Assembly: GCA_027021705.1 (NCBI GenBank)
Contig: JALUTT010000002.1
Location: 1 to 64,000, forward strand
From: Anaerolineae bacterium
Lineage (GTDB): Bacteria; Chloroflexota; Anaerolineae; S140-20
DNA: 64,000 bases
Direction: 5' to 3'
The position numbers and the translations under genes are program-made. Each line of letters begins with the position of its first letter. Position 1 is the first letter of the stretch. Below the pieces are notes generated by a model. That model had not been told where the DNA came from. It was given only the letters and a program-made list of their open reading frames with translations, and did no database searches. Of the stretch, positions 16,050 to 62,074 are shown one piece after another.

Positions 16050-16055
16050 CCTCCC

Positions 16056-17483: not shown

Positions 17484-17585
17484 AGGGTCACCTTCCGTCG
17501 TCGTGCTCTGGGTGGGACCGGAGGCTCCCCGGTCTGCCGGCGATGCCGTCCGGCAGGGATGGGGAAGCCAGGTCCGGTCGTCGGG

Positions 17586-18413: not shown

Positions 18414-18420
18414 CCGTCGT

Positions 18421-19269: not shown

Positions 19270-19276
19270 CGGTTCC

Positions 19277-25960: not shown

Positions 25961-26226
25961 TCGGGCTTGGAAAGCCCTCCTACCGGGGCGCAGGAGGCCC
26001 TTCAGGGTGTAGGAGGCCCTTCCAGGGCCGAAGATCGGGCTTGGAAAGTCGGGCTTGGAAAGCCCTCCTACAAGGGGGCCACCGGCAGAATCTCTGCGCT
26101 GGCCCCATATCGGGCTTGGAAAGCCCTCCTACCGGGGCGCAGGAGGCCCTTCAGGGCGTAGGAGGCCCTTCCAGGGCCGAAGATCGGGCTTGGAAAGTCG
26201 GGCCTGGAAGGCCCTCCTACAAGGGG
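25961..26226. repeat. GTAG-type REP/BIME cluster, 149-bp tandem duplication
   Basis: TCGGGCTTGGAAAGCCCTCCTAC units and inverted GTAGGAGG units. Blocks start at 25961 and 26110. Confidence 0.8.
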
Positions 26227-27185
26227 GTGGTTGGTACGGGAGGCCGTTTCACCTCGGCCACGCGGTCCCAGAGGCGGCAGAAGGCACAGAGGCCGGGAGC
26301 GCTGGTCGGCTGACCGCAGCGCTCGCAGGCGTGGAGCCGCCCTTCCTCCCGCTCCTGGACGGCGGCGAAGAGCCCCTCCTCCTTGGCCCGCAGGAAGCTG
26401 AGGTAGAACTGGAGTTTGGCCCCCGGCGATTGGGCCTCCAGTTGGGCCAGGAGTTCCTTGTAGGCGATGGTCTTGCTCCCCACGGCGTGGGGGCATTCTT
26501 CGTAGATGTAGTCAATCCCCCGCAGCAGGGCGTAGGCCGCCGTCTCCCGCTCGTAGAAGCGGCAGAAGGGCTTCACCTTCCGGGCCAGGCCGGGGTGGCT
26601 GGCCGGCAGCACCGGGGCCTGGCGGGCCAGGTAGCCGGTCTGCCAGTGGAGCACGTTGGAGAAGAGGACGGCCACCTCGTCGTCCAGGTTGTGGCCCGTC
26701 GCCAGCACGTCGTACCCCATCTCGTGGGCGATCCGGTTCATCTCGTGGCGCTTCACCAGCCCACAGACGGAGCAGGGCTTGCCCCGCCCCCGGTTGCTGA
26801 TGCGGGCCGCCTCGGGGATGGTCGCCCCGTAGAGGGCGTTGACGTCGAGGACGTGCAGTTGGGCGTCGGGCCAGAGGGTTTCGACGAACTGCTCCACCTT
26901 CTCGAAGGACTGGCCGGAATAGTCGAAGCGGGTGGCGATCCCCAGGTCAATGTAGAGGCCATCGGCCTGGTAGCCCAGGCGCAGGAGCACGTCCCAGAGG
27001 CCCAGGCTGTCCTTCCCGCCGGAGACGGCGACGAGGACCCGCTCGTCGCGGCGGAACATCTTGTAGCGGCGGATGGTGCGGGCCGTCTGCTCGACGAACC
27101 ACTCCTGGTAGTGCTCCCCGCAGAGCGCCAGCTTGTGGTGGCGCATGTTGATGGCGGCCTTCTGACCGCACTTGCGGCACTTCAT
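26217..27185 (-). CDS. ttuA: tRNA 2-thiouridylase TtuA/Ncs6 family
   Basis: N- and C-terminal Zn fingers, PP-loop SGGKDS, CSVC, TGHNLDDE, ECP. Confidence 0.88.
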   Translation of the reverse strand: MKCRKCGQKAAINMRHHKLALCGEHYQEWFVEQTARTIRRYKMFRRDERVLVAVSGGKDSLGLWDVLLRLGYQADGLYIDLGIATRFDYSGQSFEKVEQFVETLWPDAQLHVLDVNALYGATIPEAARISNRGRGKPCSVCGLVKRHEMNRIAHEMGYDVLATGHNLDDEVAVLFSNVLHWQTGYLARQAPVLPASHPGLARKVKPFCRFYERETAAYALLRGIDYIYEECPHAVGSKTIAYKELLAQLEAQSPGAKLQFYLSFLRAKEEGLFAAVQEREEGRLHACERCGQPTSAPGLCAFCRLWDRVAEVKRPPVPTTPL

Positions 27186-27382
27186 TACGGACTCCCTCCT
27201 GAGATCACGGCCACCAGCTTGATCTCGTCGCCCTCTTCCAGACGGGTATCCTCGGTGATCAGCTTGCCGTCGCGCACGGGCAGGACCATCTCCGGCGTCA
27301 GCCCGACCTTCTCGATGGCTTCTCGAACGGTGATGCCGGCTTCCACTTCCCACTCCTGATCGCGAAGGGTGATCTTCACCAT
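27185..27382 (-). CDS. ttuB: ThiS/MoaD-family sulfur carrier (TtuB-like)
   Basis: 65-aa beta-grasp protein ending ...VAVISGGSP, coupled to ttuA. Confidence 0.78.
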   Translation of the reverse strand: MVKITLRDQEWEVEAGITVREAIEKVGLTPEMVLPVRDGKLITEDTRLEEGDEIKLVAVISGGSP

Positions 27383-27584
27383 AGCCTCCTCCTTCCCAGG
27401 GTTGTGAATCCCGGAGACCGGGTCTTCGGCTGCTGGATTCACGCCCGGATTGTACGCGAAAGCGGGGTGAGCGTCAAGGCGCAGGGTGGCCATCGGGGAT
27501 CGTCGGGAAGGCGTAGGGTATCCGTAGGGAAAGCGTGGGGAGGGCGTTCAGAAAGAAAATCGGCTTTGTGGTAAAGTACAATCA

Positions 27585-27655
27585 GCAAGGCGCTCCTTTT
27601 CTCCTCCTTTGCATAGAGAGCCGGGTAGGGTGCAGGCCCCCGCCCGGCTCTCTGT
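27585..27655 (+). ncRNA. Candidate small RNA with anti-Shine-Dalgarno tract
   Basis: Extended -10-like TGTGGTAAAGT/TACAAT upstream, CTCCTTTTCTCCTCCTTT tract, 11-bp stem AGAGAGCCGGG/CCCGGCTCTCT. Confidence 0.4.
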
Positions 27656-27667
27656 GGTCTGGCGGAA

Positions 27668-27704
27668 AGCAGCCCTCCCGGTCCCTGGGACCGGGAGGGC
27701 TGCT
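27668..27704. terminator. Long perfect hairpin downstream of the dsrE-like gene
   Basis: AGCAGCCCTCCCGGTCCC-T-GGGACCGGGAGGGCTGCT. Confidence 0.65.
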
Positions 27705-27747
27705 TGTGTGTATCCCCTCGCTCACGGAGCGTGGATGGAGGGCTAGG

Positions 27748-28254
27748 TTAGATGAAGATGATCTGGGCGCCTTCGGTCATGTCAATGAAGTCGCTGGCGG
27801 TGACGATGCCCTCGACGCCTTCGACGAAGTCGTCCATCGTCAGGCCCATCATGTCCACCGTCATCTTGCAGGCGTACAGCTTGGCACCACCATCCACCAG
27901 CATCTGCAGGTATTCGCGCACCGGCGGCACGTCCAGGTCCGCGATCTTCTTCTTCAAGAAAGCGGTGGCGAAGGCGGTCATACCCGGCAGGGCGCCCATC
28001 CACTGGGGGATGCCCAGATTGCCGGTGGGCAGACCCATCAGGCTGAACTTGAAGCTGGTGTTGGCGACCGGGGCGATTTCCAGGTGGTCCACGCGCTTCT
28101 TGTTGATGATGTCCAGCCCCCAGAAGGTGAAGAAGATGGTCACGTCCACGCCATTGCCCAGGGCGGCCCAACCCATAATCAGGGCCGGCAAGGCCATGTC
28201 TAGATCGCCCTTGGAGCAGATGAAGGCGATATGGCGGTTCTTTTCCTCAGCCAT
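27748..28254 (-). CDS. DsrE/DsrF/DrsH-like (DsrE2-type) sulfurtransferase
   Basis: IFFTFWGL, YACKMTVDMM, GAQIIFI. Confidence 0.88.
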   Translation of the reverse strand: MAEEKNRHIAFICSKGDLDMALPALIMGWAALGNGVDVTIFFTFWGLDIINKKRVDHLEIAPVANTSFKFSLMGLPTGNLGIPQWMGALPGMTAFATAFLKKKIADLDVPPVREYLQMLVDGGAKLYACKMTVDMMGLTMDDFVEGVEGIVTASDFIDMTEGAQIIFI

Positions 28255-28352
28255 TGTTGCTCTCCTTGATCCTGTGTCGGGAAGACCCCAAGGGTTTCCG
28301 GCCGGAGAACCCTTAGGGCCTTCGGCGGCTCCGAGAAGATCCAGGCGTGCTC

Positions 28353-28670
28353 TTAGACGCAGCCTTGGGGCTTCCCCAGCCCGGCGATGCGGGCGACCTT
28401 CTTGGCCGGGCCTTTGGGGAAGAGCTTGAACAGTTCCTTGGTGGGGATGCCCCCGGCTTTGGTGATCCGCCGCAGGGTTGGCGGTTCCCCCCGCGCCTTG
28501 AAGTCGGCCCGGCAGAACTCGATCACCTTCCAGTGGCGGTCGGTCAACTCCTCGATGCCCTCCTCACGGGCGAGCACTTTGGCGATCTCCGGCGTCCAAT
28601 CGTCGGGGTTGACCATAAACCCCTCATCGTCGAACTCAATGGGCTTCCCAGCGATCTCTCGAACAGCCAT
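28353..28670 (-). CDS. TusE/DsrC-family sulfur relay protein
   Basis: DDEGF, LT..HWKVI, LFPKGP...AGLGKPQGCV. Only the penultimate Cys is kept in the C-terminal arm. Confidence 0.9.
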   Translation of the reverse strand: MAVREIAGKPIEFDDEGFMVNPDDWTPEIAKVLAREEGIEELTDRHWKVIEFCRADFKARGEPPTLRRITKAGGIPTKELFKLFPKGPAKKVARIAGLGKPQGCV

Positions 28671-28730
28671 AGGTTTTCCTCCTTATTGGCTCTATAGCTT
28701 CTTCTGGCTTTATAGCTTACAGCTCTGGAG

Positions 28731-28830
28731 CTTGCCCCCTGCCCCCTGCAACTTGCCCCTTGCTCCTTGCCCCTTGCCCCCTGCCCCTTGCCCCTTGCAA
28801 CTTGCAACTTGCAACTTGCCCCTTGCCCCC
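28731..28830. repeat. Degenerate heptamer tandem array (CCCTTGC/AACTTGC)
   Basis: About 14 consecutive 7-mers. Confidence 0.85.
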
Positions 28831-28832
28831 TC

Positions 28833-29573
28833 TCACTTCGCGCTCTCACCAACGGAGCGGAGCACGAGCAAGGTCTTGGAAAGTCCTCGCCGGACGGCAG
28901 GGTCGTTCAACTGCCGCAAGATGTGCAGCAGCGAGGTATCGGTCGGTTCCTCGGCCCTGGCCGTGACGGCCACCTGACCCATCATCTGCATGATCTCGGG
29001 CTGGGTCATCTCCTTGATGGTCCGCAGGATGAGGACGATGTTGTCGGCCAGTTGGCGCACATCCTCCTCGGTGAAGGAGGTCACGATCCGATCCACCATC
29101 TCCAGACCGCCCTGCAGGAAGACGAAGTACCCCTTCTGCTCCATCTCCTCCAGGCGGCGCATCAGGGTGAGGAAGACCTCCCGCGTGAGCGGGCTGAGGT
29201 CCTGCCACAGGTCCATCAGGCTCTCCAGTTGGTCCAGCATCTGCTCCAGGTTGCGGGTGTTGCGCAACAACCGCTTGAGGAGGTGGAAGATGTCCTCGAT
29301 CTGGACGTAGCCTTCGATCTCCTCCAGTTGCTGGACCGAGAGCCGGAAGATGTCGTTGAAGATGGGCGTCAGGTCGTCCTTGAGCTCATCCCACTCCTGG
29401 CGACGACGGCGCTGCTGGCGGGCTTCCTCGGTCAGAAAGGCGACCTGGGTGGTCAGGGCATCCAGCTTCTGGTGGATCTCCGCCAGGGCTTGAGCCGGGG
29501 GAAGGTCCGCCGCCACGGCCAGAGGGGCTTCTTGGGCTTGCCTGGGGTCTTGTGCCATCTGCCTTGCCTCCAT
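28833..29573 (-). CDS. DUF1641 domain helical protein
   Basis: C-terminal SLLHILRQLNDPAVRRGL. Typical SQR neighbour. Confidence 0.8.
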   Translation of the reverse strand: MEARQMAQDPRQAQEAPLAVAADLPPAQALAEIHQKLDALTTQVAFLTEEARQQRRRRQEWDELKDDLTPIFNDIFRLSVQQLEEIEGYVQIEDIFHLLKRLLRNTRNLEQMLDQLESLMDLWQDLSPLTREVFLTLMRRLEEMEQKGYFVFLQGGLEMVDRIVTSFTEEDVRQLADNIVLILRTIKEMTQPEIMQMMGQVAVTARAEEPTDTSLLHILRQLNDPAVRRGLSKTLLVLRSVGESAK

Positions 29574-29584
29574 CGAAGCGCCTC

Positions 29585-30817
29585 CTACATCCACTTGCCG
29601 GCCATCGTCATCTGCGCCGGGATGGGCATTTCCTTCCCCTTGAGCAGGATGTTCCAGTAGATCCAGCGGAAGAGCATCTTGCCCCAGTGGTTGACCTCCG
29701 ACTCCTGGAGCAGGGAGAAGGGGCCGATGCCCGGCAGGGGATACTTCCCCGGCAGGGGCTCCACGTCGTAGTTGAAGTCAATGAGGATGCCCTTGCCAAA
29801 GCCCGATTCGATGTAGCAGTTGGCGTGGCCGTCGAAAGCGTGGATCATCTCCAGGCCGTCAATGTAGCGCAGGAAGTTCTCGACGAAGACCTCCACGGCG
29901 AAGTGGGCCACCGAACCGGCCTTCGACGTGGGGAGGTTGGCCGCGTCGCCCAGGGCGAAGATGTTGTCGAACTGGGTGGAGAGGAAGGTGTGCTTGTCCA
30001 CCGGCACGTGGTTCAGTTCGTCCCCCAGCCCTGAGCGCTCGATGACGTCCGCGCCCATATTCACCGGCACGGCGACCAGCAGGTCGTAGGGGATCTCCTG
30101 CTCGTCATAAGAGATGAGCAGCTTCTTGTCCGGGTCCACCCGCTCGACGAAGAACTCGGGCACCACGGAGATGTTCTTCTCCTCCAGGATGTTGCCCAGC
30201 AGCTTCGAGGCCCGGGGCTTGGTGAAGGCACCGGGCAAGGGGGTCACCAGGGTCAGTTCCACCCGATCCCGCATGCCCTGGGTGTAGAAGTACCAGTCGG
30301 CCAGCATGATGAACTCCAGGGGGGCGACAGGGCACTTGAAGGGCGTTTCCATGATCGTGACCACCATACGGCCCCCGGACCAAGTGCGCAGGTGACGGGC
30401 CAGAGCCAAGGCTCCCTCGTAGGTGTAGAAGTCGTGGATGGACTTGCGCCATTCGTGTTCGGCCAGGCCGGGCGTCTCCTCGGGCCGAGGATGGGTGCCA
30501 GTGGCGATGATGAGGAAGTCGTAGTTCAGGTAGCGGTTGTCCTTGGCGATGCGCACCCGGTTGTGCTCCGGCTCGATCATCTCGATCTTGGAGACGATCA
30601 TCTCGACGCCCGGTGGGATGAAGTCCCGCTTGGGCTTGATCACGTCGTTCCGACCGTAGATGCCAAAGGGGATGAAGAGGAAGCCGGGCTGATAGTAATG
30701 GGTCTCCTCCTGGTCCACGATGGTGATCTTCCACTCATCGGGGTCCAAGTGGTGGACCAGTTTGTTGACGACCATCGTTCCGGCCGTCCCGGCTCCAAGG
30801 ACCAGTAATCGTTTCAT
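29585..30817 (-). CDS. sqr: Sulfide:quinone oxidoreductase (type III-like)
   Basis: GAGTAG, YQPG, KCPVAPLE, GDA, SKAGS, FDGHANCYIE. Confidence 0.82.
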   Translation of the reverse strand: MKRLLVLGAGTAGTMVVNKLVHHLDPDEWKITIVDQEETHYYQPGFLFIPFGIYGRNDVIKPKRDFIPPGVEMIVSKIEMIEPEHNRVRIAKDNRYLNYDFLIIATGTHPRPEETPGLAEHEWRKSIHDFYTYEGALALARHLRTWSGGRMVVTIMETPFKCPVAPLEFIMLADWYFYTQGMRDRVELTLVTPLPGAFTKPRASKLLGNILEEKNISVVPEFFVERVDPDKKLLISYDEQEIPYDLLVAVPVNMGADVIERSGLGDELNHVPVDKHTFLSTQFDNIFALGDAANLPTSKAGSVAHFAVEVFVENFLRYIDGLEMIHAFDGHANCYIESGFGKGILIDFNYDVEPLPGKYPLPGIGPFSLLQESEVNHWGKMLFRWIYWNILLKGKEMPIPAQMTMAGKWM

Positions 30818-30833: not shown

Positions 30834-31598
30834 CTACAGGTTGGTTAGTTGGGCAATCGTCTTCAGTTTTCCCACCAGGACGCTGCGCTCGGTGGCGATG
30901 TGGGAGATGATGTCGGCGATCCGCTGCAGCAGGGAGAGCACCCACGCGCGCCGGTCCTGCTCCAGATGGTAGACCTCCTCCAGGTGGGGGATCAGGACCT
31001 CCGGCGAGACCTCAAAGGTGGCGGCGATGGCCTCGATCTCCTCCTGAGACGGGGGCCAGCGGTCGGGGGCGATGCCGCCCACGATGACCATCCCTTTCAG
31101 TTCAGAGCCGACGCGTACGAAGGCGCGGGCGCAGAGGAGTCCCAGGTGGCTCCGGGTGAACTTGGGCTCCAGTTCGACCGTAGCAGCCAGGCCCTGCCAT
31201 CCCTCGATGCACTTCTGGAGGGCGTTGGTGTGTTGGTTGATGGCGGAGAAGAGGCCGCACGGATTGCTCAACCGGGTGATGGGGCGGACCTGCATGTCGG
31301 TGATGATCAGCATCAGGCCCAGCGCCTCGGCGAAGGTGTCTTGGATCAGTTGGACGCATTCTAGGGGCAGCAGGGAAGCCAGGTCATCGTCGGCAGGGGG
31401 GGAGGGGGTGAGTTGCAACGAGGGTGTTGAGCCGTTCACCTGGGCCTGAAGCCATTCCTTCACCCGGTCGGCCGGGAAACGCCACAGCCGGCCCACCTTG
31501 ATGGCCGGAATCTGACCGGCCTCGGCCATCCGGTAGATGGTCGAGCGGTCCACCTGGAGCAACTCCTGCATATCCTTCGCGGTCAGCATTTCCGCCAT
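30834..31598 (-). CDS. HTH_17 (excisionase-like) + PocR sensor domain regulator, paralog B
   Basis: MLTAKD...VDRSTIYRMAEAGQIPAIKVGRLWRF, then IQDTFAEALG...ITD..PIT..SNPC. Confidence 0.82.
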   Translation of the reverse strand: MAEMLTAKDMQELLQVDRSTIYRMAEAGQIPAIKVGRLWRFPADRVKEWLQAQVNGSTPSLQLTPSPPADDDLASLLPLECVQLIQDTFAEALGLMLIITDMQVRPITRLSNPCGLFSAINQHTNALQKCIEGWQGLAATVELEPKFTRSHLGLLCARAFVRVGSELKGMVIVGGIAPDRWPPSQEEIEAIAATFEVSPEVLIPHLEEVYHLEQDRRAWVLSLLQRIADIISHIATERSVLVGKLKTIAQLTNL

Positions 31599-31694
31599 AC
31601 TGTCCCTCCCCCAGTTATTGTGATAACCGGAACTTTCGCGCTTATTGTACCCTGCCTTTTTCTGCACGATAAGTGATATATTGCAGGATTCAAA

Positions 31695-31763
31695 CGTGAT
31701 AAGTGTCACAATATGCAGAAAAGGAAACAAGATGCAGAATATGCAAAGTGTGCAGGGCTAGCA
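31695..31763. promoter_or_regulatory. CRP/FNR-like palindrome plus 9-bp-phased GCA direct repeats
   Basis: CGTGA-N6-TCACA at 31695-31710. TGCA/AGCA at 31733, 31742, 31751 and 31760. Confidence 0.55.
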
Positions 31764-31869: not shown

Positions 31870-32355
31870 TCAGCCGAGGGAAGGGGTCAAGCGGGCGTCG
31901 GGGGGAACCGTCTGGGTGCGGTCTATGACCACCTGGCGGTCAGCATTTTGCCGCAGCGCCAGGTGGGGCAGGGGGTGGGCGGCAGGACCGGCCTCCACGG
32001 TCCCGTCGGGAGCGAAGCGGCTGCCGTGGCAGGGGCAGCGGAACCCCTCCGGCGTCTGGTCCACCAGGCAGCCCAGATGGGTGCAGACGGCGGAGATGGC
32101 GAAGTAGCCGTGCTCGTCCCGGGCCAGGTAGGCCCGGGCCGGCGCGATGTAGAGGAGGCCGCCGGGGGCGAGGGAGGAAGCGTCCGGAACCGGGACGGGC
32201 GGCGGCGCTGGCGTGGTGATGGGCGGGGTGAGGAAACGCCAGAGGGCTCGCACCGAGCCCAGGAGGGCGAGGACCAGGCTGCCACCCAGCAGCCGGCCCA
32301 GGAAGGTCCGGCGGCTCATCCCCTCTCTCGTTCGGGAGGCGTCGTGCTCGTTCAT
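31870..32355 (-). CDS. Rieske [2Fe-2S] protein with Tat signal
   Basis: SRRTFLG, CTHLGC, CPCHGS. Confidence 0.93.
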   Translation of the reverse strand: MNEHDASRTREGMSRRTFLGRLLGGSLVLALLGSVRALWRFLTPPITTPAPPPVPVPDASSLAPGGLLYIAPARAYLARDEHGYFAISAVCTHLGCLVDQTPEGFRCPCHGSRFAPDGTVEAGPAAHPLPHLALRQNADRQVVIDRTQTVPPDARLTPSLG

Positions 32356-32370
32356 TGGACTTGCGTTCCG

Positions 32371-33828
32371 TTACGGTGGTGACAGGAACGGCTTCAGCGC
32401 GTCGTCGCGCGGATAGGCGTGACAGGCGTGGCAGTAACGCGATTCCTGCTCGTCGGGTTTCTGTTGGCAGGCGCTCCCGTAGACCAGCGGCACCTCCACC
32501 TCTTCTCCCGACACCTTGAGGGTCTCCACGAAGCGGCCCGGTGCCACCTCTCGGACGGCCCACATCTTCTCTCCCCTAGGGGTGACGACCACCCGGTCGC
32601 CCACCCGGAGCTTCCCGTGGCCGTTGAGTTGGGCCTGGCGCATCGCCGGCTCGTCCTCGGCCGTGATGGGGGCCGTCTGAGGGAGCTCCCACAGCGTGCC
32701 GTGGCAGGTGCGGCACCGGACCACCTGGCTGTCGGTGACGGCATCGGCGATGTGGCCGTTCCCCATCACCTCGTCGCTGGTATGACAGTCTATGCAGTCC
32801 AGCTCCCACTCGCAGAGGGTGAACTGGCCGATGGGCTGGTAGTACTCGGCCAGGCGGCGCTGCTGGCGGGGCAGGAAGTCGGAGAGGGAGGGGCCGGCCG
32901 GCGGCAGGTCCGGGCGTGGCGTGAAGGCCATCGTGCGCAGGGAGTAGTTGCCCCGGTTGTGGCAGTGGTTGCACTGGGAGAAGGGGATGGCGGTGGTCAG
33001 GCGGTGCAGCCGGCCGTGGCCGGGCTCGTCCCGAGGGATGGTGGGGTCCTGGCCCCGGTAGAGGCCGTCGTCGGCGTAGAGGTAGTGGCAGGCGGCACAA
33101 CCGGTGCTGCGGTAGCGGTAAGGCTGGGGCGTCGCCGGCTCCGACAGGTGGCAGCCGCCCTCCAGGCAGGATCGACGGAAGCGGGTGTCTATGGGATGTC
33201 CGGAAGCGGTGACGCCCTGGGCGGCGAGGGCCGGCATCAGCTCGTCGGGGGCGGAGACGGGCAGGGGCTTCAGCGCGGCGACGAAGCCGGGCGGTGGGTT
33301 CGGGTCCTGGGCAGCCATCACCCCGTAGCGCCCCTCCTGGTCGGGCTGAGCGCCGAAGGCGTGGCGCACCAGGGCGATGCCGCCGGCGTAGGTGGCCATC
33401 AGGCTGCGGCCAACCCGCTCCACCCCATCGCGGCCTGCTTGGCCCGTGTGGCTGTGGCAGTTGCAGGCCCGGGCCATCGTCGCGAAGCCCGAGGGGTTGC
33501 GTCCGCCCACCAGCCCGGCGTGGGCCCGCTCCCGGTCCAGGGCCAGCCCGTTGCCACCGTGGCAGCTCACGCAGCCGAAGGTCTCCAGGGGATGGCTGGG
33601 GCTGATCTCCTCGATGCCCACGTGGCAGGTCGTGCACAGCTCCGGCTGGCCTGTCCGCGAGGGGGTGATGGACCGGATGCCCAGAGGGATGGGATCGTCG
33701 GGATGGGCGGCGTTGTAGCGGCGTTGCCATTGCTGCCACTCGGCCTGCCCGGTCCGCCACCAGGCGAAGGCCATCGCCAGGAGCAGAAAGAGGGCAGCTC
33801 CCACCGTCCACCGGACCGGATGCTTCAC
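32371..33828 (-). CDS. Membrane-anchored multiheme cytochrome c
   Basis: Seven CxxCH motifs plus CNCH and CLEGGCH. N-terminal TM helix. Confidence 0.88.
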   Translation of the reverse strand: MKHPVRWTVGAALFLLLAMAFAWWRTGQAEWQQWQRRYNAAHPDDPIPLGIRSITPSRTGQPELCTTCHVGIEEISPSHPLETFGCVSCHGGNGLALDRERAHAGLVGGRNPSGFATMARACNCHSHTGQAGRDGVERVGRSLMATYAGGIALVRHAFGAQPDQEGRYGVMAAQDPNPPPGFVAALKPLPVSAPDELMPALAAQGVTASGHPIDTRFRRSCLEGGCHLSEPATPQPYRYRSTGCAACHYLYADDGLYRGQDPTIPRDEPGHGRLHRLTTAIPFSQCNHCHNRGNYSLRTMAFTPRPDLPPAGPSLSDFLPRQQRRLAEYYQPIGQFTLCEWELDCIDCHTSDEVMGNGHIADAVTDSQVVRCRTCHGTLWELPQTAPITAEDEPAMRQAQLNGHGKLRVGDRVVVTPRGEKMWAVREVAPGRFVETLKVSGEEVEVPLVYGSACQQKPDEQESRYCHACHAYPRDDALKPFLSPP

Positions 33829-34898
33829 GGTATCACCTCCCCCACGGTCAAGACGATGAGGAGCAGGGCGATGAAGGCGAAGAGGGCCTGCACAGGGCCT
33901 CGTCGTCGGTCGAACCAGCGGCCGGCCCGGGCGTGGGGGTCCAGCCAGGGGATGGCGGCCAGGAGGGTGAGCAAGGCCAGCGGGATGCCCACCCCGGCCC
34001 AGAAGGGGGGGAGGTGGCGCAGCAGGCGCTGTACCCAGAGGAAGATCCAGGGAGCCTGGGCCGTGGGGGGAGGGCGGTCCAGGGAGGCAGAGGCACCTAG
34101 AGGGGCCGGGCGGAGGGCTGAGAGCAAGAGGAGCCCACCGGTGATCAGGAGGGCGGCGATGGTCTCCCGCTGGAAGAGGACTTCCTTGGAGACCATCCGG
34201 CGGGGCCGGCCCGCCGGGCGCGGAGGGCGGGAGATGCCGCCGTCCACCCGCAGCCGGAAGAGGTGGTAGACGATGCCGAAGACGACCGGGAGGGTCAAGC
34301 CGATGACGTGCCAGCCGTAGAAGCGGAGCAGGGCCGCCTCCCCGATCTGCCGGTCGCCCACCAGCACCAGGTAGAGGGACCGGCCCAGATGGGGGATCCG
34401 ACCGACCAGGTTGGTGCCCACCAGCAGGGCCCAGTGGGCGCCCTCATCCCAGCGCAACACGTAACCGCTGAAGTCCCAGAGCAGGACGAGGACCAGCAGG
34501 CCGAGCCCGATCAGCCAGTTGAGGCGGCGGGGGCGGGCGTAGGCCCCGGTGAAGACGATGCGGGCCATGTGGAGCGTGACGGCCAGGACGAAGAGCTGGG
34601 CGGCCCAGTAGTGGAGCGCCCGGATCAGGCTGCCAAAGGCCACCACGTCTTCGATCAGGACGATGGAGGCGTGGGCCTCCTCCGGCGTGGGCTGGTAGTA
34701 GAGGGTGAGGAAGAGCCCGGTCAGGATGGTGAGGGTGGCGGCCAGGATGCTGATGCCGCCCAGACCGAAGGTGTAGGTGAGGCGGATGCTCTCGGCCGGG
34801 AGGCGGTCCGGGTGCAGGGCGTAGAGGATAGATTGGTGTCTCTGCCAGAGACGGCGGCGCCGTCGGGTAGAAGTGAGGACGCGCATCATCCTCGTCAT
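33825..34898 (-). CDS. Cytochrome b of a Rieske/cytochrome b complex (b6-like N-part and subunit IV-like C-part in one chain)
   Basis: TFGLGG, HYW...LHMAR, SGYVLRWD, RFYGWH...YH, APWIF. Confidence 0.88.
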   Translation of the reverse strand: MTRMMRVLTSTRRRRRLWQRHQSILYALHPDRLPAESIRLTYTFGLGGISILAATLTILTGLFLTLYYQPTPEEAHASIVLIEDVVAFGSLIRALHYWAAQLFVLAVTLHMARIVFTGAYARPRRLNWLIGLGLLVLVLLWDFSGYVLRWDEGAHWALLVGTNLVGRIPHLGRSLYLVLVGDRQIGEAALLRFYGWHVIGLTLPVVFGIVYHLFRLRVDGGISRPPRPAGRPRRMVSKEVLFQRETIAALLITGGLLLLSALRPAPLGASASLDRPPPTAQAPWIFLWVQRLLRHLPPFWAGVGIPLALLTLLAAIPWLDPHARAGRWFDRRRGPVQALFAFIALLLIVLTVGEVIP

Positions 34899-34933: not shown

Positions 34934-35971
34934 TCAGCGGGCGAAGACGGGTAGGAAGTGGGAGAGCTGCCCGGCGTAGACGAAGACGTAGCGCAGCAGG
35001 AAGCCGCCGATCAGCACCAAGAGGCTGCTGGCCAGGCTCAACTGCCGGCGGTACTTGATGGCCCCCTCCTTCAGGATGATGGGGAAGAGCTCGTACCCCT
35101 CGACGGCCAGGGGGAGCAGCAGGCCCAGCCCGATCACGCCGATCCAGAAGGGGGCGGTGAAAGGCCCTCCCAGGATCAGCTTGAGCGAGGCGGCCGAGCT
35201 CCAGGTGTTCAGCGTCTGGTGCAGGAAGAAGGGGATGATGATGAAGATCTCCAGCACGATCAGCACGGCGTCCACCGAGACCAGCAGGTGCCGTTCGTGC
35301 TCCAGGGCTGCCGGGTCCAGCAGGTCTCCCACCAGGGTGGCGACCAGCAGGAGGAAGGCCACGCCGGTGGACATAGCCGAGAAGAGGAAGAGCTGGGCGA
35401 CCATCGGGGTGTTCCAGAAGGGGCGGGCCGGGATAGCTCCCAGGAGGACGCCGGTGTACATCCCTACGCCCAGGGAGATGGGAAAGCCGACGGCGGCCAG
35501 CACCCCTCGCCCGATGCGCACCGTCCGGGAGGGGATCGGCTGCCAGCGGGCAGGGGCGAGGAGGTCGCCGACGCGCTGGGGAACCCGGATCAGGTTGCGC
35601 AGGGGCCGGGGCAGCCAGAGGACCAGGTAGAGGAGCGAGACGATGACGAAGAGGGTCAGCAGCCAGCTCCCGATGGACATGGGCGAGGTAAACTGGATGG
35701 TGGTGAAGAGCAGCCAGAAGTGCAGAGGGCGTCCCAGGTCGAAGACGAGCATGGCGAGGCCCAACATCAGGGGCCAGGGGGCCAGCAGGGCTCCCAGCCT
35801 GGCGATGCGGCGGTAGCGCCCGCCGCCCAGGTAGGTGGCCAGGCCGGACATGGCGAAGATCCCGGCGCTGATGCCGGCGGTGTAGAGGTAGATGACCACC
35901 AGCAGGCCCCATTCGATCGTCGTCGGTGATCCGCTGTAGCCTTGGAGAAAAGGGTCGTAGGTTGTGGGCAT
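34934..35971 (-). CDS. psrC: NrfD/PsrC membrane anchor subunit
   Basis: WGLLVVIYLY, DLGRP, SPMSIGSW, YTGVLL, RPFWN. Confidence 0.85.
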   Translation of the reverse strand: MPTTYDPFLQGYSGSPTTIEWGLLVVIYLYTAGISAGIFAMSGLATYLGGGRYRRIARLGALLAPWPLMLGLAMLVFDLGRPLHFWLLFTTIQFTSPMSIGSWLLTLFVIVSLLYLVLWLPRPLRNLIRVPQRVGDLLAPARWQPIPSRTVRIGRGVLAAVGFPISLGVGMYTGVLLGAIPARPFWNTPMVAQLFLFSAMSTGVAFLLLVATLVGDLLDPAALEHERHLLVSVDAVLIVLEIFIIIPFFLHQTLNTWSSAASLKLILGGPFTAPFWIGVIGLGLLLPLAVEGYELFPIILKEGAIKYRRQLSLASSLLVLIGGFLLRYVFVYAGQLSHFLPVFAR

Positions 35972-35986
35972 CGTGCACCTGCCTCT

Positions 35987-36550
35987 CTAGTCCACGAGGT
36001 AGAAGATGGCCGGCCCGGTTCCCGCTTCGGGGTAGAGGGTGTAGTGTTGGTGGGTGGCGAGCAGCTTGGAGACCTCGCTCTCGGGGTCGTTGAGGTCGCC
36101 GAAGTGGCGAGCTCCTCCCACGCAGGTCTCCACGCAGGCCGGAGGCTGCCCGGCGTCCAGACGGTGCACGCAGAAGGTGCACTTGTCCACCACGCCCCGC
36201 TCTTCGTCGAAGTAGCGGGCGTCGTAGGGGCAGGCCTGGATGCAGTAGCGGCAGCCGATGCACCGGTCGTAGTCAATGAGCACCAGCCCGTCCTCCCGGC
36301 GGTAGGTCGCGCCGGTGGGGCAGACCCGCTCGCAGGGCGGGTTGGTGCAGTGGTGGCAGTTCTCCGGCGCGAAGAAGAGGCTGACGTCGGGATAGCTCCC
36401 TTTGGTCTGGTGGGCGATCCAGTTGCGGTGATGTCCGATGGGCACGTTGTTCTCGACCGAGCAGGCGACCATACAGGCTTCACAGTCTATGCACCGCTTG
36501 GGCTCCATCACGAAGACCCAGCGGGGCGTCTTCTTCGTCGTATCCGCCAT
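35987..36550 (-). CDS. psrB: 4x[4Fe-4S] electron transfer subunit (PsrB/NrfC)
   Basis: CIDCEAC, CHHCTNPPC..CP, CIGCRYC..ACP, KCTFC. Confidence 0.88.
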   Translation of the reverse strand: MADTTKKTPRWVFVMEPKRCIDCEACMVACSVENNVPIGHHRNWIAHQTKGSYPDVSLFFAPENCHHCTNPPCERVCPTGATYRREDGLVLIDYDRCIGCRYCIQACPYDARYFDEERGVVDKCTFCVHRLDAGQPPACVETCVGGARHFGDLNDPESEVSKLLATHQHYTLYPEAGTGPAIFYLVD

Positions 36551-36563
36551 CGTCGTTCACTCC

Positions 36564-38810
36564 CTACGCTTTGGTGACCTTCACCATCGTCTGGCTGAGG
36601 GCCTGCGAGCCGGTGATGGGGTCGGTGAAGGTGAGGTGCAGGTCCGAATCGCTGGCCCCGGCCCCGTAGGCCGTGCGCAGCCCCTTGCTCAGATGGCCGA
36701 AGCCGGGCGTCATGTAGACGCAGTCGGGGCGGATCCGTTCGGTCACGTGGGCCCGGGTCTTCACCCGACCGGCGGCGCTCTCCACCCACACTTCGTCGCC
36801 GTCGGCGATCCCCCGGGCGGCGGCGGCCTTGGGGTGGATCCAGAGGGGGTTGTCCGGCACCCGCTCGTGGAGCAGCCGGTTGTTGTGGGTGGCGAACTGG
36901 GTGTGCTGGGCCACCTTGCCCGTCAGCAGGTAGAACTGGCCTTCAAAGGGCTCCGGCGGCGCTTCCCAGGTGGGCACGGCGGGAAAGCCGGCGTTGCGCA
37001 GCACCTCGCTGGCCAGCTCGATCTTGCCGCTGGGGGTGTTCCAGCTCAGCGTAGGCTTCCCCTCCGCCTCGGCCGGGGCGGTTTCCGGCAGCCGGTAGAA
37101 GCCCCGCTCCTTCAGCTCCTCCAGCGTGATCTCCAGCGGGGCGAGTTGTTGCCGCAGGTAGTCCTCCTCGTCCTCGTAGGGGAAGTAGTCGCCCAGGCCC
37201 AGCCGCTCGCCCAGTTGCTTGAAGATCCACAAGCCCGACCGGCTCTCCCCCAGAGGCTCGACGGCCGGCTGGCGGATGAAGACGATGCCGTCCACCACCG
37301 TCAGTGGGTCGTACCGCTCCAGGTAGCTGGCCTCGGGCAGGACCACGTCGCTGAACCAGGCGGTGTCGTTCATCGCGATGTCAATGGTGACGATGAACTC
37401 CAGCTTGCTGAAGGCTTCCAGTGTCTTGCGACGCTCGGGCAGGGCGTTGACCGGGTTCTGGCGGTAGATGAACCAGCCCTTGGCCTGGTAGGGTTCGCCC
37501 CGCAGGATGTTGTCGCGGATCTCCTGGAAGACGCCCAGCTTCAGGGGCACCAGCGGGTACTTCCAGGGCACGCCGTCCAGCCGCAGGGCGGCCACGCGCG
37601 GGTAGGGGGGGTGGGGGAGGGAGGCCAGGCCGGCCCCTTCCTCGCCGGCGGCCGGCTGGAGGCCGCCGGGCTGCCCCCAGTTGCCCACCAGCGCGTTCAG
37701 GATGGCGATGGCCCGCTCCGTCTGGAAGGAGTTGAGGAAGTTGCTGGTGCGCCAGTTGGGGTGGGCGAAGGCGTGGGGGGCTGCCAGGGCGAACTCGTGG
37801 GCGATCCGCCGGATGGTCGAGGCCGGGATCTCCGTCTTGGTGGCGGCCCACTCCGGCGTGTAGTCGCGCACCGCCTCCTTGAGCTCGTCGAAGCCCACGG
37901 TGTAGGCTTCCACGAAGGCGTGGTCGTAGAGGTCGTTGTAGATGATCTCGTGGATCAGCGCCAGGTGGAAGGCCAGGTCGGTCCCCGGCTTGATGGGCAG
38001 CCATTCCGTGGCCTTGGCTGCCGTCTTGGTGAAGCGGGGGTCCAGCACAACGACCTTGGCCCCCCGGGCGATGGCCGCCACCAGCGCCTGGCTCTCCGAG
38101 TTGGAGATGGCCTCCAGCAGGTTGCGGCCCGTGTAGATGATGTACTGGGCAGCGCTGTAGTCGCGGCCCGGCTCCTGCACCCCGTAGGTGAGCAGGTTGG
38201 CGACGATCATCGCGTTGAAGCAGAGGGAGCGCTGGGTCCCGTAGTTGGGCGAGCCGTAGGCTTTCAGCAAGTTCTCGAAAACGGGCTGGAGCAGGTTGTG
38301 GGTGGTGCTGAAGATCATCGCCTCGGGGCCGTATTTTTCCTTGATCTCCAGCATTCGCTCCGCCACGTAGTCCAGGGCTTGCTCCCAGGAGACGCGCTGC
38401 CACTTGCCGCTGCCCCGCTCGCCGGCCCGGATCATCGGGTAGAGCAGGCGGTCGGGGTCGTAGAGGGTGGCCACCCCCGCCTGCCCTCGGGGGCAGAGCA
38501 TCCCGTTGGAGTGGGGGTGATGGGGGTTGCCGTCCAGCTTGTAGACCTTCCCGTCCTTGACCTTGGCGACCAGGCCGCAGCGCCAGACGCACTGCTCGCA
38601 CAAAGAGTAGACCTCGCGGTCGAAGACGACGGGCGGGAGCGGTTTCAGTCCACCGTCCGGCGAGAGGGACGGCTCCAAGGAGAGGCGGGGGAGCCGCAGC
38701 CCCAGCCCCAGGGCGGCCAGGGTCCCGGCGCTCACCCCTAGGAAAGTCCGCCGGCTGATGGGGCGGTCCAACACCGACGGTTCGGGTGCTTCACGTCCTT
38801 TCTTGCTCAT
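36564..38810 (-). CDS. psrA: Polysulfide/thiosulfate reductase-type molybdopterin catalytic subunit
   Basis: Tat motif SRRTFLG, CEQCVWRC...C [4Fe-4S] motif, SLCF Cys ligand, KPGTD, DVVLPEASYLER. Confidence 0.82.
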   Translation of the reverse strand: MSKKGREAPEPSVLDRPISRRTFLGVSAGTLAALGLGLRLPRLSLEPSLSPDGGLKPLPPVVFDREVYSLCEQCVWRCGLVAKVKDGKVYKLDGNPHHPHSNGMLCPRGQAGVATLYDPDRLLYPMIRAGERGSGKWQRVSWEQALDYVAERMLEIKEKYGPEAMIFSTTHNLLQPVFENLLKAYGSPNYGTQRSLCFNAMIVANLLTYGVQEPGRDYSAAQYIIYTGRNLLEAISNSESQALVAAIARGAKVVVLDPRFTKTAAKATEWLPIKPGTDLAFHLALIHEIIYNDLYDHAFVEAYTVGFDELKEAVRDYTPEWAATKTEIPASTIRRIAHEFALAAPHAFAHPNWRTSNFLNSFQTERAIAILNALVGNWGQPGGLQPAAGEEGAGLASLPHPPYPRVAALRLDGVPWKYPLVPLKLGVFQEIRDNILRGEPYQAKGWFIYRQNPVNALPERRKTLEAFSKLEFIVTIDIAMNDTAWFSDVVLPEASYLERYDPLTVVDGIVFIRQPAVEPLGESRSGLWIFKQLGERLGLGDYFPYEDEEDYLRQQLAPLEITLEELKERGFYRLPETAPAEAEGKPTLSWNTPSGKIELASEVLRNAGFPAVPTWEAPPEPFEGQFYLLTGKVAQHTQFATHNNRLLHERVPDNPLWIHPKAAAARGIADGDEVWVESAAGRVKTRAHVTERIRPDCVYMTPGFGHLSKGLRTAYGAGASDSDLHLTFTDPITGSQALSQTMVKVTKA

Positions 38811-38832: not shown

Positions 38833-39411
38833 TTACGCTTTCTGTCCTGTGCTCCCCACCTGGTCGGCCTTCGCCCTGGGGTCGCCCGTCTTGCCCAGGA
38901 CGTAGAAGAGGATCAGCGTGATCTCCGTGAACAGGATGATCAGCAACCAGGGGTTGGCGTGGATCAGGTCTGCCAGGACGACGCTACCCAGGTTGGCCAG
39001 GGCCGAGATCTTGGGGAAGACCTGCGGGTAGGTCAGGCCGTAGAGGATGGCCCCGACCAGGAAGCCCAACATCCCGGGGATCAGGTAGTCCAGGTTGCCT
39101 TGGCCGCCACCGGCGACGCAGGTTCCCGGTCAGAAGCCCGCCAGGGCCATGCCCACGCCGAAGATCAGCCCGCCCACCAGGTTGCCGACGACGTAGGTGG
39201 GGGTGATTTTCATCAGTGTGATCACGCCCAGGGCTTGCAGGCCGTAGAGGCCGATCATCCCCACGACCAGGGCGGACATCATGAACTTGAGCACGGCCAG
39301 GTCCGTGAAGCGGAAGACGTTGACGATCTTGGAGTACTTGGTCAGGCCGGCCTTCTGCAGCAGCCAGCCGAAGCAGAAGCCGAAGATCAGCGCGAGCAGG
39401 TAGTCGAGCAT
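38833..39411 (-). CDS. YeeE/YedE thiosulfate-transporter-family protein, probable selenoprotein (UGA=Sec at 39130-39132)
   Basis: Two in-frame ORFs joined by one TGA in GF-U-PGT (the G-x-C-P-G-T motif), followed by a SECIS-like hairpin. Confidence 0.85.
39090..39129 (-). promoter_or_regulatory. Putative bacterial SECIS element
   Basis: Directly 3' of UGA: CCGGG/CCTGG lower stem, TGC/GCA, GTCGCC/GGCGGC upper stem, apical loop GGT starting at +19. Confidence 0.6.
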
Positions 39412-39421
39412 CGTATTCCCC

Positions 39422-39958
39422 CTAGAACTTGCTGCCGTAGAGGATCATCGCGGTCACGATGCCGGAGACGAACATACCGGCGATGAAGATGAAGGCGGCG
39501 GGAGCCAGGGCGATCCCCCCGGCGATGGCCAGCCCGCTGGTGCAGCCGCCGGCGATGCCTGCGCCGTACTCCAGGATGATGCCGCCGACGAAGGCGGCCA
39601 CCCAGCGCTTCCAGCGGCTGGGCCCGAAGACCCGCTTCCACTGGGGGTCGGGCACCGGGTCCAGTTTGAAGGTGTCGGAGAGCTTGGAGGCGGCGAAGGC
39701 CCCGAAGAAGGCACCGACCAGCAGGATCACCTGCCAGGTGATGCCCGGCGGCATGACGAACTTGAAGTAGAGGTTCTTCTCCACCAGGTCGGGTGCCACC
39801 GCCTTCAGGATGAGCCCGCCGATGTTCTCGAAGGAGCCGGAGGCTCCGATGGCCTGGTGGCTGAGGGCGACGATGAGGACGGCGACGATCCCCAGGCCGG
39901 CCCCCGACCAGATGGGGGACCACTCTTCTTTCCTCAGAGCGCGGATGATCGCGTTCAC
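39422..39958 (-). CDS. YeeE/YedE family protein (Cys form)
   Basis: IGASG and GAGIAGGCTSG motifs, multi-TM. Confidence 0.88.
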   Translation of the reverse strand: MNAIIRALRKEEWSPIWSGAGLGIVAVLIVALSHQAIGASGSFENIGGLILKAVAPDLVEKNLYFKFVMPPGITWQVILLVGAFFGAFAASKLSDTFKLDPVPDPQWKRVFGPSRWKRWVAAFVGGIILEYGAGIAGGCTSGLAIAGGIALAPAAFIFIAGMFVSGIVTAMILYGSKF

Positions 39959-39977: not shown

Positions 39978-40973
39978 CTATGAGAGCTCCTTGCGCAGCG
40001 CCATCAGCAACTCCACCTCCTCAGGGTCCAGGCGGGTGACGGCGGAGAGCAGGTTCAAATCCAGACGGGAGACCGCTTTGAGCACCTGCGGCCCCAGGGG
40101 GCGGTTGCTCAGCAGCCGGGCGATGGCTTCTAAAGTGGCGGGATCGGCCTCGGCCAGGGTGGCGATGACCTCCGCCAGCGCTGGCGGTTCGGCGGTGGGG
40201 GCCGGCTGCCCGGTGGGGTAGGGCCTTACCTCGCCAGGGGATGGGATGGACGGGGGCGCAGCGGGGGCACCGGCCAGGGCCGCCTGCATCTCCATCAGCA
40301 TGTTGGCCCGCCACCAGGCGGCGAGGCGGCTGGGCACCTGCTCGAAGTGCCACACCAGGCCGAGGAAGACCAGGGCCAGCAGGAGGATGAGGGCGATGAG
40401 CACCAGGTTGCTGACGTTGGTCCTGGGCTGTTCGGCGGCCTGGCTCTCGGCGTAGACCTTGTTCAGGTCAATGATCTCGCCTCCCGACGGGGCGCTCACC
40501 GGACCGGCTGCGGCCGGGGCGGCGGGGGCCTCCGAAGAGGGCGCCGAGGGGGCCGATGGGGCTTCGCCGGCCGGAGGGGCTCCACCGCCGCCGCCGGTGC
40601 CCACTTCAACGCCCAGCACGCCGGCGTACTGCTGGGCCAGGTCCATGTAGTCGTTGGGGTGGCACGACTGACAACTGGCCTGGACGTCGCCCAAGGGGGC
40701 GACCAGCCCCTGGTGGGCGGCTTCCTTGTCCGTGGCCTGCACGTCGCCGGCGTGGCAGAATTCGCAGAAATCGCCGAAGGCGTGGGCCGTGTGCCACTCC
40801 CCCTCGTTGTTCACCGGGTCCTGCCCTTGCACCTCGTGGCAGTTCTTGCAGGAGGAGACCGAGGACCCGCACTGGGCTACTGCCTGTCGCTCGTTCAGCC
40901 CCCCCATCAGCACCAGGCTGAGGGCGGCCAGGGCGAGCAGCAGGCCCACCCGTATCGGTATGCGACGGTTCAT
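39978..40973 (-). CDS. Tri-heme cytochrome c with linker, TM helix and C-terminal helical tail
   Basis: Signal peptide, CKNCH, CEFCH, CQSCH, Ala/Pro linker, TM segment. Confidence 0.8.
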   Translation of the reverse strand: MNRRIPIRVGLLLALAALSLVLMGGLNERQAVAQCGSSVSSCKNCHEVQGQDPVNNEGEWHTAHAFGDFCEFCHAGDVQATDKEAAHQGLVAPLGDVQASCQSCHPNDYMDLAQQYAGVLGVEVGTGGGGGAPPAGEAPSAPSAPSSEAPAAPAAAGPVSAPSGGEIIDLNKVYAESQAAEQPRTNVSNLVLIALILLLALVFLGLVWHFEQVPSRLAAWWRANMLMEMQAALAGAPAAPPSIPSPGEVRPYPTGQPAPTAEPPALAEVIATLAEADPATLEAIARLLSNRPLGPQVLKAVSRLDLNLLSAVTRLDPEEVELLMALRKELS

Positions 40974-41009
40974 GCTTCCCTCCATCCAACTCCGTGCGAT
41001 GGGTGACGG

Positions 41010-41741
41010 TTACGATCTTGCCGAAAGGCCACGCTCCGTGGCGAGGTGGGACATGATGTTGGCGATGCGTTGCAGCAAGGTGAGCACCCAGGCTCGCCGG
41101 TCCGCTTCCAGGTGGAAGACCTCCGTCAGGTGGGCGGCCAACGCCTCTGGGGGAACGTCGAACGTGGTGGCGATCGCCCGGAGGGCCTCGTCGGAGGGGG
41201 GCCAGTCGTCGGGGGCAACGCCTCCCAGGAGCACCATGCCCTTCAACTCGTGGCCAACGCGGATCAAGGCCCGGGCGCAGAGGAGGCCGGAGGTCGTGCG
41301 CGTGAACTGCGGCTCCAGGTCAATGATGGTCGCCAGATCGTGCCAGTCCTGGATGCAGTGGGAGAGGGCGTTGGGGTTCTGGACGATGATCTCCAGGAAG
41401 CCGCAGAGGTTGCTGAAGCGGGTGATGGGGTGCCCCTCCAGATCGGTGATGACCAGGGTCACGCCCAGCGCCTCGGCGAAGGTGTCCTGGATCAGCTGGA
41501 CGCACTCCAGAGGCAGCAGGGAGGCCAGGTCGCTCTGGGAGATCAGGGCATCGGCGGGAAGGGATGGGGCCGAAGTCTCGACCCGGCTCTGGAGCCACCG
41601 CTTGACCAGGTTAGCGGGGAAGCGCCACTGCTTGCCCACTTTGATGGCCGGGATCTGACCGGCCTCGGCCATCCGATAGATGGTCGAGCGGTCCACCTGG
41701 AGCAGCGCTTGCAGGTCCTTGGCGGTCAGCATCTCGTCCAT
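41010..41741 (-). CDS. HTH_17 + PocR regulator, paralog A
   Basis: Highly similar to 30834-31598 (VDRSTIYRMAEAGQIPAIKVG; DLASLLPLECVQLIQDTFAEALG). Confidence 0.82.
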   Translation of the reverse strand: MDEMLTAKDLQALLQVDRSTIYRMAEAGQIPAIKVGKQWRFPANLVKRWLQSRVETSAPSLPADALISQSDLASLLPLECVQLIQDTFAEALGVTLVITDLEGHPITRFSNLCGFLEIIVQNPNALSHCIQDWHDLATIIDLEPQFTRTTSGLLCARALIRVGHELKGMVLLGGVAPDDWPPSDEALRAIATTFDVPPEALAAHLTEVFHLEADRRAWVLTLLQRIANIMSHLATERGLSARS

Positions 41742-41844
41742 AGGCTTCCTCGTTCCGTGGGTCGAATATGTGAAAGTTTGAACGTGCGTGCCCATCTTAG
41801 TCCGTTTCCCCGTCTCCAGCAAGTGACGTATGGCAGCGCCAACA

Positions 41845-61959: not shown

Positions 61960-62074
61960 CATCAAGGTAGACTTACGCAACGATAAAGTTATTATACACC
62001 AAAAGGCCGAAACTGGGCAAAGGTGCCGATTCGTGTATAATGGCCTTACTGCACAGTGGCAGGGGAGGACAGGG

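Follow-up and report, generated by a model that had tools for sequence, protein, structure and literature searches.

The window, a stretch of 64,000 nucleotides from an Anaerolineae bacterium, contains on the minus strand at 38833..39411 a gene that reads as a 192-aa protein when TGA is translated as selenocysteine (Sec, U). The frame holds one TGA, at codon 94 (39130..39132), in the context GMALAGF-U-PGTCVAGGGQG, where the motif U-P-G-T-C includes a second cysteine, Cys98. The translation and a match to the YeeE/YedE family PF04143 (72.5 bits against a cut-off of 27, profile positions 9-155) point to one half of a split YeeE/YedE channel, of PmpB/YedE2 type and putatively with Sec. The first-pass annotation of this DNA had described two open reading frames in one frame, 39130-39411 (93 aa) and 38833-39072 (79 aa), with a single TGA between them, and both were found again; its coordinates for the gene were correct, and the strand, which it had left unstated, is minus. 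As it had also expected, gene callers split the gene, and in public collections the pieces of 93 aa and 79 aa are entered as two genes. The plus strand of the locus is open as well, but that reading was rejected as the shadow of a membrane gene. Directly upstream, a 178-aa gene (39422..39958, minus strand) that ends 10 nt before the Sec gene encodes a PmpA/YedE1-type partner half with the motif GGCTSG and matches PF04143 at profile positions 169-309.

The two genes correspond to complementary parts of the single-chain channel TsuA. In a phmmer comparison, residues 7-106 of the Sec half matched residues 5-103 of 6LEO, the TsuA/YeeE of S. thermophila, with an E value of 1.9e-6, and position 94 fell on Cys91, which bears out the earlier proposal that the UGA occupies the conserved Cys of YeeE/YedE proteins. 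The profile of the partner half matched TsuA residues 227-330, with Cys139 on Cys293. TsuA depends on both Cys91 and Cys293 (PMC7449682), PmpB has been mapped to the N-terminal half with Cys91 and PmpA to the C-terminal half with Cys293 in a proposed heterodimer (PMC11582611), and YedE1E2, which imports zero-valent sulfur, needs both halves and both cysteines (PMC10812762). The Sec half covers TsuA residues ~1-181, that is, the N-terminal half and an extra helix. Its single-chain model was mediocre (pLDDT 66, pTM 0.51) and placed an extra C-terminal helix at 154-175; residues 2-172 of the model could be superimposed on residues 1-181 of 6LEP with a middling Z score (Z 5.4, rmsd 4.3, 158 aligned), and a Foldseek search with this mediocre model returned nothing with an E value of 0.001 or below, the best match being again 6LEP at E 2.9. 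When the profiles of the two halves were compared with each other, the match was not significant (E 0.33), though it aligned the two Cys motifs, and a match to DUF6691 within the pair scored 23.5 bits (cut-off 27). Given this complementarity and the literature on PmpAB and YedE1E2, the two halves very probably form a Cys/Sec heterodimer.

The pair lies within a larger operon, whose order on the minus strand is PocR regulator, triheme cytochrome, PmpA half, Sec half, PhsA/PsrA-like enzyme, 4Fe-4S subunit, NrfD anchor, cytochrome b, ExtM-like cytochrome and Rieske protein; the first seven of these genes are separated by 10-24 nt. The triheme c-type cytochrome (39978..40985, 335 aa) has CxxCH motifs at 46, 74 and 105 and a membrane anchor from about residue 193, and it had no match in Pfam or NCBIfam. 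Downstream of the Sec gene, the PhsA/PsrA-like molybdopterin oxidoreductase (36564..38810) starts 22 nt past the Sec gene, carries a twin-arginine-like signal, SRRTFLG, and scored 620.8 bits against the PhsA model NF012032, below its cut-off of 694; Phs and Psr have been described as indistinguishable by sequence (PMC13047784). It is followed by a PsrB/TtrB-like 4Fe-4S subunit (35987..36550), an NrfD/PsrC membrane anchor (34934..35971, PF03916), a cytochrome b/b6-like membrane protein (33825..34898, PF00033; 357 aa from an internal ATG chosen by eye), a multiheme cytochrome c distantly like Geobacter ExtM (32371..33828; 159.7 bits against NF040943, cut-off 800) and a Rieske 2Fe-2S protein (31870..32355, PF00355), all on the minus strand. 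A scan for promoters and terminators within the operon found nothing above chance.

We compared this arrangement and the Sec gene itself across 94 homologous loci, drawn from a pool of 71 GTDB loci and loci from searches of relatives and of the class by keeping those with at least 50% identity and dropping 8 duplicates. The partner half was present with its Cys in 93 of them, the remaining locus being truncated by a contig end, and the Cys codon was TGC in 76 and TGT in 17 of the 93. The triheme cytochrome adjoined the pair in 87 loci and the molybdoenzyme in 86, and most of the misses lay at contig ends. None of the homologues of the cytochrome, the PmpA half or the PsrA-like enzyme in the 94 loci had an in-frame TGA at a conserved position. 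Among the best 120 longer homologues of the partner half (P0251-P0370), 119 had a cytochrome homologue fused N-terminally to the PmpA half; some of these proteins are named as Anaerolineaceae, Myxococcota-type genera or Deltaproteobacteria. The order within the fusion, with the cytochrome outside, one helix and the partner N-terminus inside, fits the inverted topology of the TsuA halves (PMC7449682). A complex prediction of cytochrome residues 37-230 and three hemes against the two halves, in which the natural Cys homologue P0003 (80% identical) stood in for the Sec half, scored 0.23 against a mark of 0.32, a value that speaks neither for nor against a contact. Upstream of the operon lies a regulator with HTH_17 and a PocR sensory domain (41010..41822, minus strand), whose homologue was present in 9/94 loci; in 42/94 an ArsR/SmtB-like gene, recognised by eye and usually with one N-terminal Cys, was found there instead. 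A PocR-regulator paralogue at 30834-31730 on the minus strand means that two paralogues bracket the operon.

Further genes related to sulfur and molybdenum metabolism were observed elsewhere in the window. A cluster at 26217-30817 (minus strand), downstream of the operon, encodes a type III sulfide:quinone reductase (SQR), DUF1641, DsrC/TusE-like, DsrE2, ThiS/TtuB and TtuA proteins; it could be a cytoplasmic sulfur relay and a potential receiver of the cargo in this genome. Its SQR matches the NCBIfam 'selenoprotein subtype' model (644 vs 525 bits) and is a 410-aa open reading frame with no in-frame TGA, and an SQR fell inside the fetched flanks of only 2/94 loci. A xanthine-dehydrogenase-family molybdoenzyme cluster with XdhC lies at 13407-19365 (minus strand), a sulfite-oxidase-like gene at 60177-61814 and MobB at 62033-62605.

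The TGA codon was the same in contigs from a second study. Neither X2, with 17 differences from the window, nor X3, with 11, had a change that altered the codon, and the kinds of change listed for them are incompatible with TGC, TGT or TGG at codon 94. The runs behind the compared contigs are labelled hydrothermal vent metagenomes; run X1, which may be the source of the window, was left out of the comparison. Raw reads with TGC or TGT had been named beforehand as evidence that would speak against Sec; because these contigs, assembled sequences rather than raw reads, come from another study and keep the codon unchanged, we conclude that the TGA is no assembly error.

Across the 94 dereplicated genes, column 94 was occupied by TGA in 57, by TGC in 30 and by TGT in 7, giving 37 Cys genes and nothing else, in agreement with the expectation that homologues would carry Cys or UGA rather than Trp. 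The motif UPGTC was present in 57/57 TGA genes and CPGTC in 20/37 Cys genes, and Cys98 was correspondingly invariant in the Sec forms (57/57) and kept in only 20/37 Cys forms. Residues 95-113, which are absent from both called pieces, were conserved in relatives. A clade of nine Cys genes (L026, L027, L078, L089, L095, L126, L127, L129 and L132) has CAAP[IV] in place of CPGTC, with both Pro95 and Cys98 lost and the operon retained. In a quick tree built with the column masked and with its root untested, there were at least 8 switches between Sec and Cys, 2 of them forced by strong branches. The closest named loci were from Anaerolineae, and in a sample of 301 genomes of the phylum strong matches occurred within the class only (16/301). 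A DNA pattern that contains the TGA retrieved at least 120 metagenome stretches, 117 of them distinct; all 117 were homologous and one was a copy of the query gene. This set was selected for TGA and therefore says nothing about how frequent TGA is.

The first-pass annotation had proposed a check for the Sec machinery, and the genome, which is 94.9% complete, contains selA (456 bits), selB (303.7 bits), selD (375.9 bits) and selC, the last as a tRNA-Sec(UCA) with a score of 72.5; tRNA-Trp(CCA) genes are also present. The selD gene carries an in-frame TGA of its own. Among the GTDB loci, selA was found in 41/43 genomes with a TGA gene and in 18/26 with a Cys gene, and in the class sample in 17/18 and 15/15, respectively. 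Since 362 of 401 class genomes (a tally that includes the unpublished G328), or 90% of the class, have selA, its co-occurrence with TGA is a weak discriminator. No match to selA was obtained in three genomes with a TGA gene, namely G162, which is 91% complete and has two TGA copies, G409 and G423.

The sequence directly 3' of the UGA folds into a bacterial SECIS-like hairpin (39090..39129, minus strand), identified by folding and comparison, with a core 6-bp stem of 39117-39112 paired with 39108-39103 and a GGU apical loop at 39111-39109 whose first G lies at +19. The fold energy of the 40 nt after the UGA is -19.9 kcal/mol, and with this energy, its 6 bp and the GGU loop at +19 the hairpin agrees with the bacterial SECIS consensus as given in the Fig. 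2 legend of PMC13188914. Taken alone it is little above chance (z -1.65, with 11/200 shuffles folding as well), and at random TGA triplets of this genome of 66% GC a loose SECIS rule was passed by 559/3000 (18.6%) and a tight rule by 67/3000 (2.2%). The relatives gave a sharp result. All five outer pairs of the upper stem formed in 53/57 TGA genes and in 3/37 Cys genes, the stem was kept in 3/28 when only Cys genes of CPGT type were considered, and the tight rule was passed by 52/57 TGA genes against 4/37 Cys genes; the structure was defined on the query gene, the relatives are not independent of one another, and the stem lies in sequence that is also under coding constraint. It is this comparison (53/57 vs 3/37) and not the single-sequence fold that makes the hairpin convincing. 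Third codon positions over codons +1..+10 had an entropy of 0.83 bits in TGA genes and 1.49 in Cys genes, and residue +8 was Gly, Ser or Cys in 56/57 TGA genes, with mostly stem-preserving codons, and Ala in 21/37 Cys genes. The loop-closing pair was C-G in 34, U-A in 7 and A-U in 1 of 55 TGA genes and unpaired in 13; for changes on both sides of this pair, 0/500 shuffles reached the count in the TGA genes, whereas 492/500 did so in the Cys genes. The upper stem of the TGA genes is thus sharply distinguished and carries compensatory changes.

Of the two-tier hairpin described in the first pass, the fold and the G-starting loop at +19 were recovered, and the lowest tier proved to be less well kept: its positions (+1..+5 with +36..+40) were 73% paired in the TGA genes, compared with 94% in the two tiers above it, so that it is the upper hairpin that is conserved. 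The metagenome copies with TGA were less uniform, with all five upper-stem pairs in 88/117. Two Cys genes, L055 and L135, kept the whole hairpin, possibly as expected after a recent change from Sec to Cys, and one TGA gene, L128, has a different stem, yet a G at +19.

These results strongly support the recoding of UGA94 to selenocysteine, and the gene at 38833-39411, judged from its sequence and its relatives, is almost certainly intact, with a TGA that is predicted to encode Sec. The alternative that the TGA is a real stop, in a pseudogene or in a true two-gene split from which 93-aa and 79-aa pieces or nothing would be made, would account for the two called genes in public collections, and codon 114, a Met, offers a possible start for the second piece; it seems extremely improbable, because in 57 genes from many families the stop would fall exactly on an essential Cys with the frame open on both sides and would never appear as TAA or TAG, the SECIS-type stem is selected in TGA genes only, and the conserved residues 95-113 belong to neither piece. 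Equally hard to credit is a reading of the UGA as Trp or Cys through an alternative code or a suppressor. At the column, 115 of 120 database proteins have Cys and 5 have Trp, but all five Trp proteins (P0011, P0033, P0082, P0098 and P0115) come from JGI short contigs. P0033 matches the TGA locus L246 at 99%, the other four being untraced to DNA; this match indicates that the Trp of P0033 is a TGA read as Trp and that gene callers sometimes read the TGA of the Sec column in this way. Moreover, none of the 94 genes has TGG at the column, TGA terminates many ordinary genes within the window, and the sole tRNA found with a UCA anticodon is the 95-98-nt tRNA-Sec. We put the probability of the reading as a whole, that an intact gene with a recoded Sec codon encodes the N-terminal half of a split channel in a sulfur-respiration module, at roughly 90%.

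According to this reading, SelB and tRNA(Sec), guided by the hairpin at +13..+27, would recode UGA94 and yield a 192-aa membrane protein. The product would be the N-terminal half, of PmpB/YedE2 type, of an hourglass-shaped YeeE/YedE channel, with the 178-aa gene supplying the C-terminal half, and the pore would carry an outer Cys139 (equivalent to Cys293) and a central Sec94 (equivalent to Cys91), with Thr24 in place of the third relay Cys (equivalent to Cys22). The outer Cys would hand sulfane sulfur on to the inner selenol, and Cys98, four residues past the Sec, may speculatively serve as a resolving thiol. A selenol is a better nucleophile and a better leaving group than a thiol. We infer that such chemistry suits a covalent transfer of persulfide type rather than a hydrogen-bond relay. 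The module would combine the outward-facing triheme cytochrome beside the channel with an exported Psr/Phs-like molybdoenzyme fed by quinol-oxidising subunits. Most likely, the pair resembles PmpAB/YedE1E2 and serves sulfur respiration as a sulfane-sulfur channel; by analogy, movement of sulfane sulfur or polysulfide across the membrane, as in YedE1E2, is somewhat favoured as its activity. The more specific proposal that the YeeE pair works together with the triheme cytochrome and the Psr-like enzyme as a selenol-gated, redox-coupled translocator of sulfane sulfur in Anaerolineae sulfur respiration is tentative.

Other functions would leave the Sec in place. The first-pass annotation had called the protein a TsuA-type thiosulfate uptake protein, a function that is probably wrong. 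In such a case the pair would import thiosulfate for assimilation; its best NCBIfam and PDB matches are indeed to TsuA, and the molybdoenzyme scores best with the thiosulfate reductase PhsA. However, the scores fall far short of the cut-offs set for TsuA (50.5 vs 400 bits for NF052577 and 27.7 vs 645 for NF041049), and at the TsuA Cys22 column, Thr24 here, 118 of 120 homologues have Thr and the other 2 have Ser. In E. coli, TsuA requires YeeD (PMC11073785), whereas a motif search of the same strand in the 94 loci, with flanks of varying length, detected no gene of TusA/YeeD type. This genome (G000) has two TusA-family genes, on contigs C99 and C171, and the one on C171 stands beside a separate full-length YeeE. 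Because the Cys22 equivalent and an adjacent YeeD/TsuB are lacking and a separate YeeE stands with TusA on C171, a TsuA-type function is doubtful, and we regard both this role and thiosulfate as the cargo as unlikely. The same low standing applies to a module that handles selenium oxyanions or selenide, or that relays a sulfur signal to the ArsR or PocR regulator in the manner of SoxT1B, a precedent described in PMC11582611. Low-scoring matches to YedE models with a link to selenium (38.2 and 28.2 bits), the weak match to ExtM of a selenite/tellurite reduction operon and the ArsR-like gene upstream in 42/94 loci point in that direction, but the YedE and ExtM scores are far below their cut-offs, no sel gene was noticed among the genes that recur nearby, and Cys versions of the module are common, including in genomes with no selA match. 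Taken singly, a selenium species is a still less probable cargo than thiosulfate, and a signalling role of the channel is less probable again. The sulfane-sulfur channel therefore remains our preferred reading.

Sec candidates were also observed in other YeeE channels of the class. A full-length YeeE (~320 aa) with a TGA at the Cys22 column was present in 5/401 class genomes (L285-L289, at G150:C57, G119:C156, G286:C128, G342:C15 and G324:C205), an example being L281:881-1846 on the minus strand. These genes read QRGRF-U-M or QCGNF-U-M and have Cys at 91, with Asp at 293 in the four that reach that column; in four relatives at a greater distance, all three columns are Cys. A small hairpin near +30..+44 recurred in four of the Cys22-TGA genes, and Sec at the Cys22 site was not found in the catalogues examined. 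In addition, L278:436-1725 (minus strand; G299:C323) encodes a distant PmpB-type half (31% identity) fused to a domain that is rhodanese-like by eye, with a TGA at the Cys91 column (IGGY-U-PGTS), an unrelated hairpin and, if its last TGA is read through, an end in GGG-U-G. L278 is perhaps a separate origin of Sec at the Cys91 site. Going by these sequences, Sec candidates exist at all three pore positions, namely the catalogued Cys293 site, the Cys91 site of the present gene and the Cys22 site of L285-L289. If Sec has truly been recruited separately at three pore cysteines, it would follow that YeeE moves sulfur by covalent (per)sulfide or selenosulfide chemistry and not through a hydrogen-bond relay. 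How YeeE/YedE proteins transfer sulfur, through hydrogen bonds or covalently, is debated (PMC7449682, PMC11582611), the hydrogen-bond relay having been proposed from the TsuA crystal structure (PMC7449682).

Reading the TGA as Sec repairs a systematic annotation error in a widespread Anaerolineae gene that has been stored as 93-aa and 79-aa fragments or with Trp. The fragment annotation hides the transporter of a conserved sulfur-respiration operon. The main value of the present findings is mechanistic and lies in natural Sec/Cys pairs that differ little elsewhere and in Sec candidates at three pore positions. As selenium can be traced by 75Se, 77Se NMR and anomalous scattering, the Sec/Cys pairs offer a direct test of the transfer mechanism.

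The channel resembles several known systems and differs from each of them. TsuA/YeeE of Spirochaeta thermophila and E. coli (6LEO, 6LEP, 8J4C and 8K1R; PMC7449682, PMC11073785) is homologous, with U94 equivalent to Cys91 and Cys139 to Cys293. As described there, TsuA is one chain of 330-350 aa with three cysteines (22, 91 and 293) and YeeD/TsuB as its partner, whereas here the chain is split, the gene order is permuted, Cys22 is replaced by Thr and no YeeD-like neighbour was found. YedE1E2 of Cupriavidus pinatubonensis and PmpAB of Serratia are closer in design, being likewise encoded by adjacent half genes with one pore Cys each, often beside an ArsR regulator (PMC10812762, PMC11582611). According to these reports, their halves have ~130 aa and 4 helices and are linked to a persulfide dioxygenase; the halves here have 178 and 192 aa, the latter with the extra C-terminal helix, a predicted Sec in place of Cys and the second Cys98, and they are linked to the triheme cytochrome and a Psr/Phs respiratory module. 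This module has features of both PsrABC/PhsABC and the Geobacter Ext/MccSep system (PMC13510729), sharing the molybdoenzyme, Fe-S, NrfD, ExtM-like cytochrome, Rieske and cytochrome b components with them. The accessible text on Ext/MccSep (PMC13510729) mentions neither YeeE nor YedE, and in the present operon the predicted Sec resides in the channel and not in the reductase.

Finally, YeeE/YedE (PF04143) is itself a listed family of predicted selenoproteins, with the motif GUxSG and WP_012471001.1 as an example (PMC13188914, PMC9312934), and Table S3 of Peng 2016 gives a YeeE/YedE selenoprotein for 5 organisms (PMC5029168). Three examples in the deep-Sep supplement (PMC12013277) read A[D/G]G-U-PSGHGLSG and have, by eye, the WSPY... 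and W..RFG motifs of the partner half; from these shared motifs we regard them as PmpA-type halves with Sec at the Cys293 site. The catalogued GUxSG site is Cys in 93/93 partner halves of the loci compared here. No Sec form at the Cys91 site appeared in literature searches or in the accessible parts of PMC2398784, PMC13326102, PMC13510729, PMC13047784 and PMC13490349, and the present gene adds a Sec site, equivalent to Cys91, not found in the catalogues examined. The catalogued and the present forms belong to the same Pfam family, are half-size, carry Sec for a conserved pore Cys and are both predicted only. They differ in that the catalogued form has Sec at the Cys293 site of a PmpA-type half, whereas the form from Anaerolineae has it at the Cys91 site of a PmpB-type half (GF/Y-U-PGTC). 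Relative to the published examples examined, the predicted Sec at the Cys91 site is a new site variant within a catalogued selenoprotein family.
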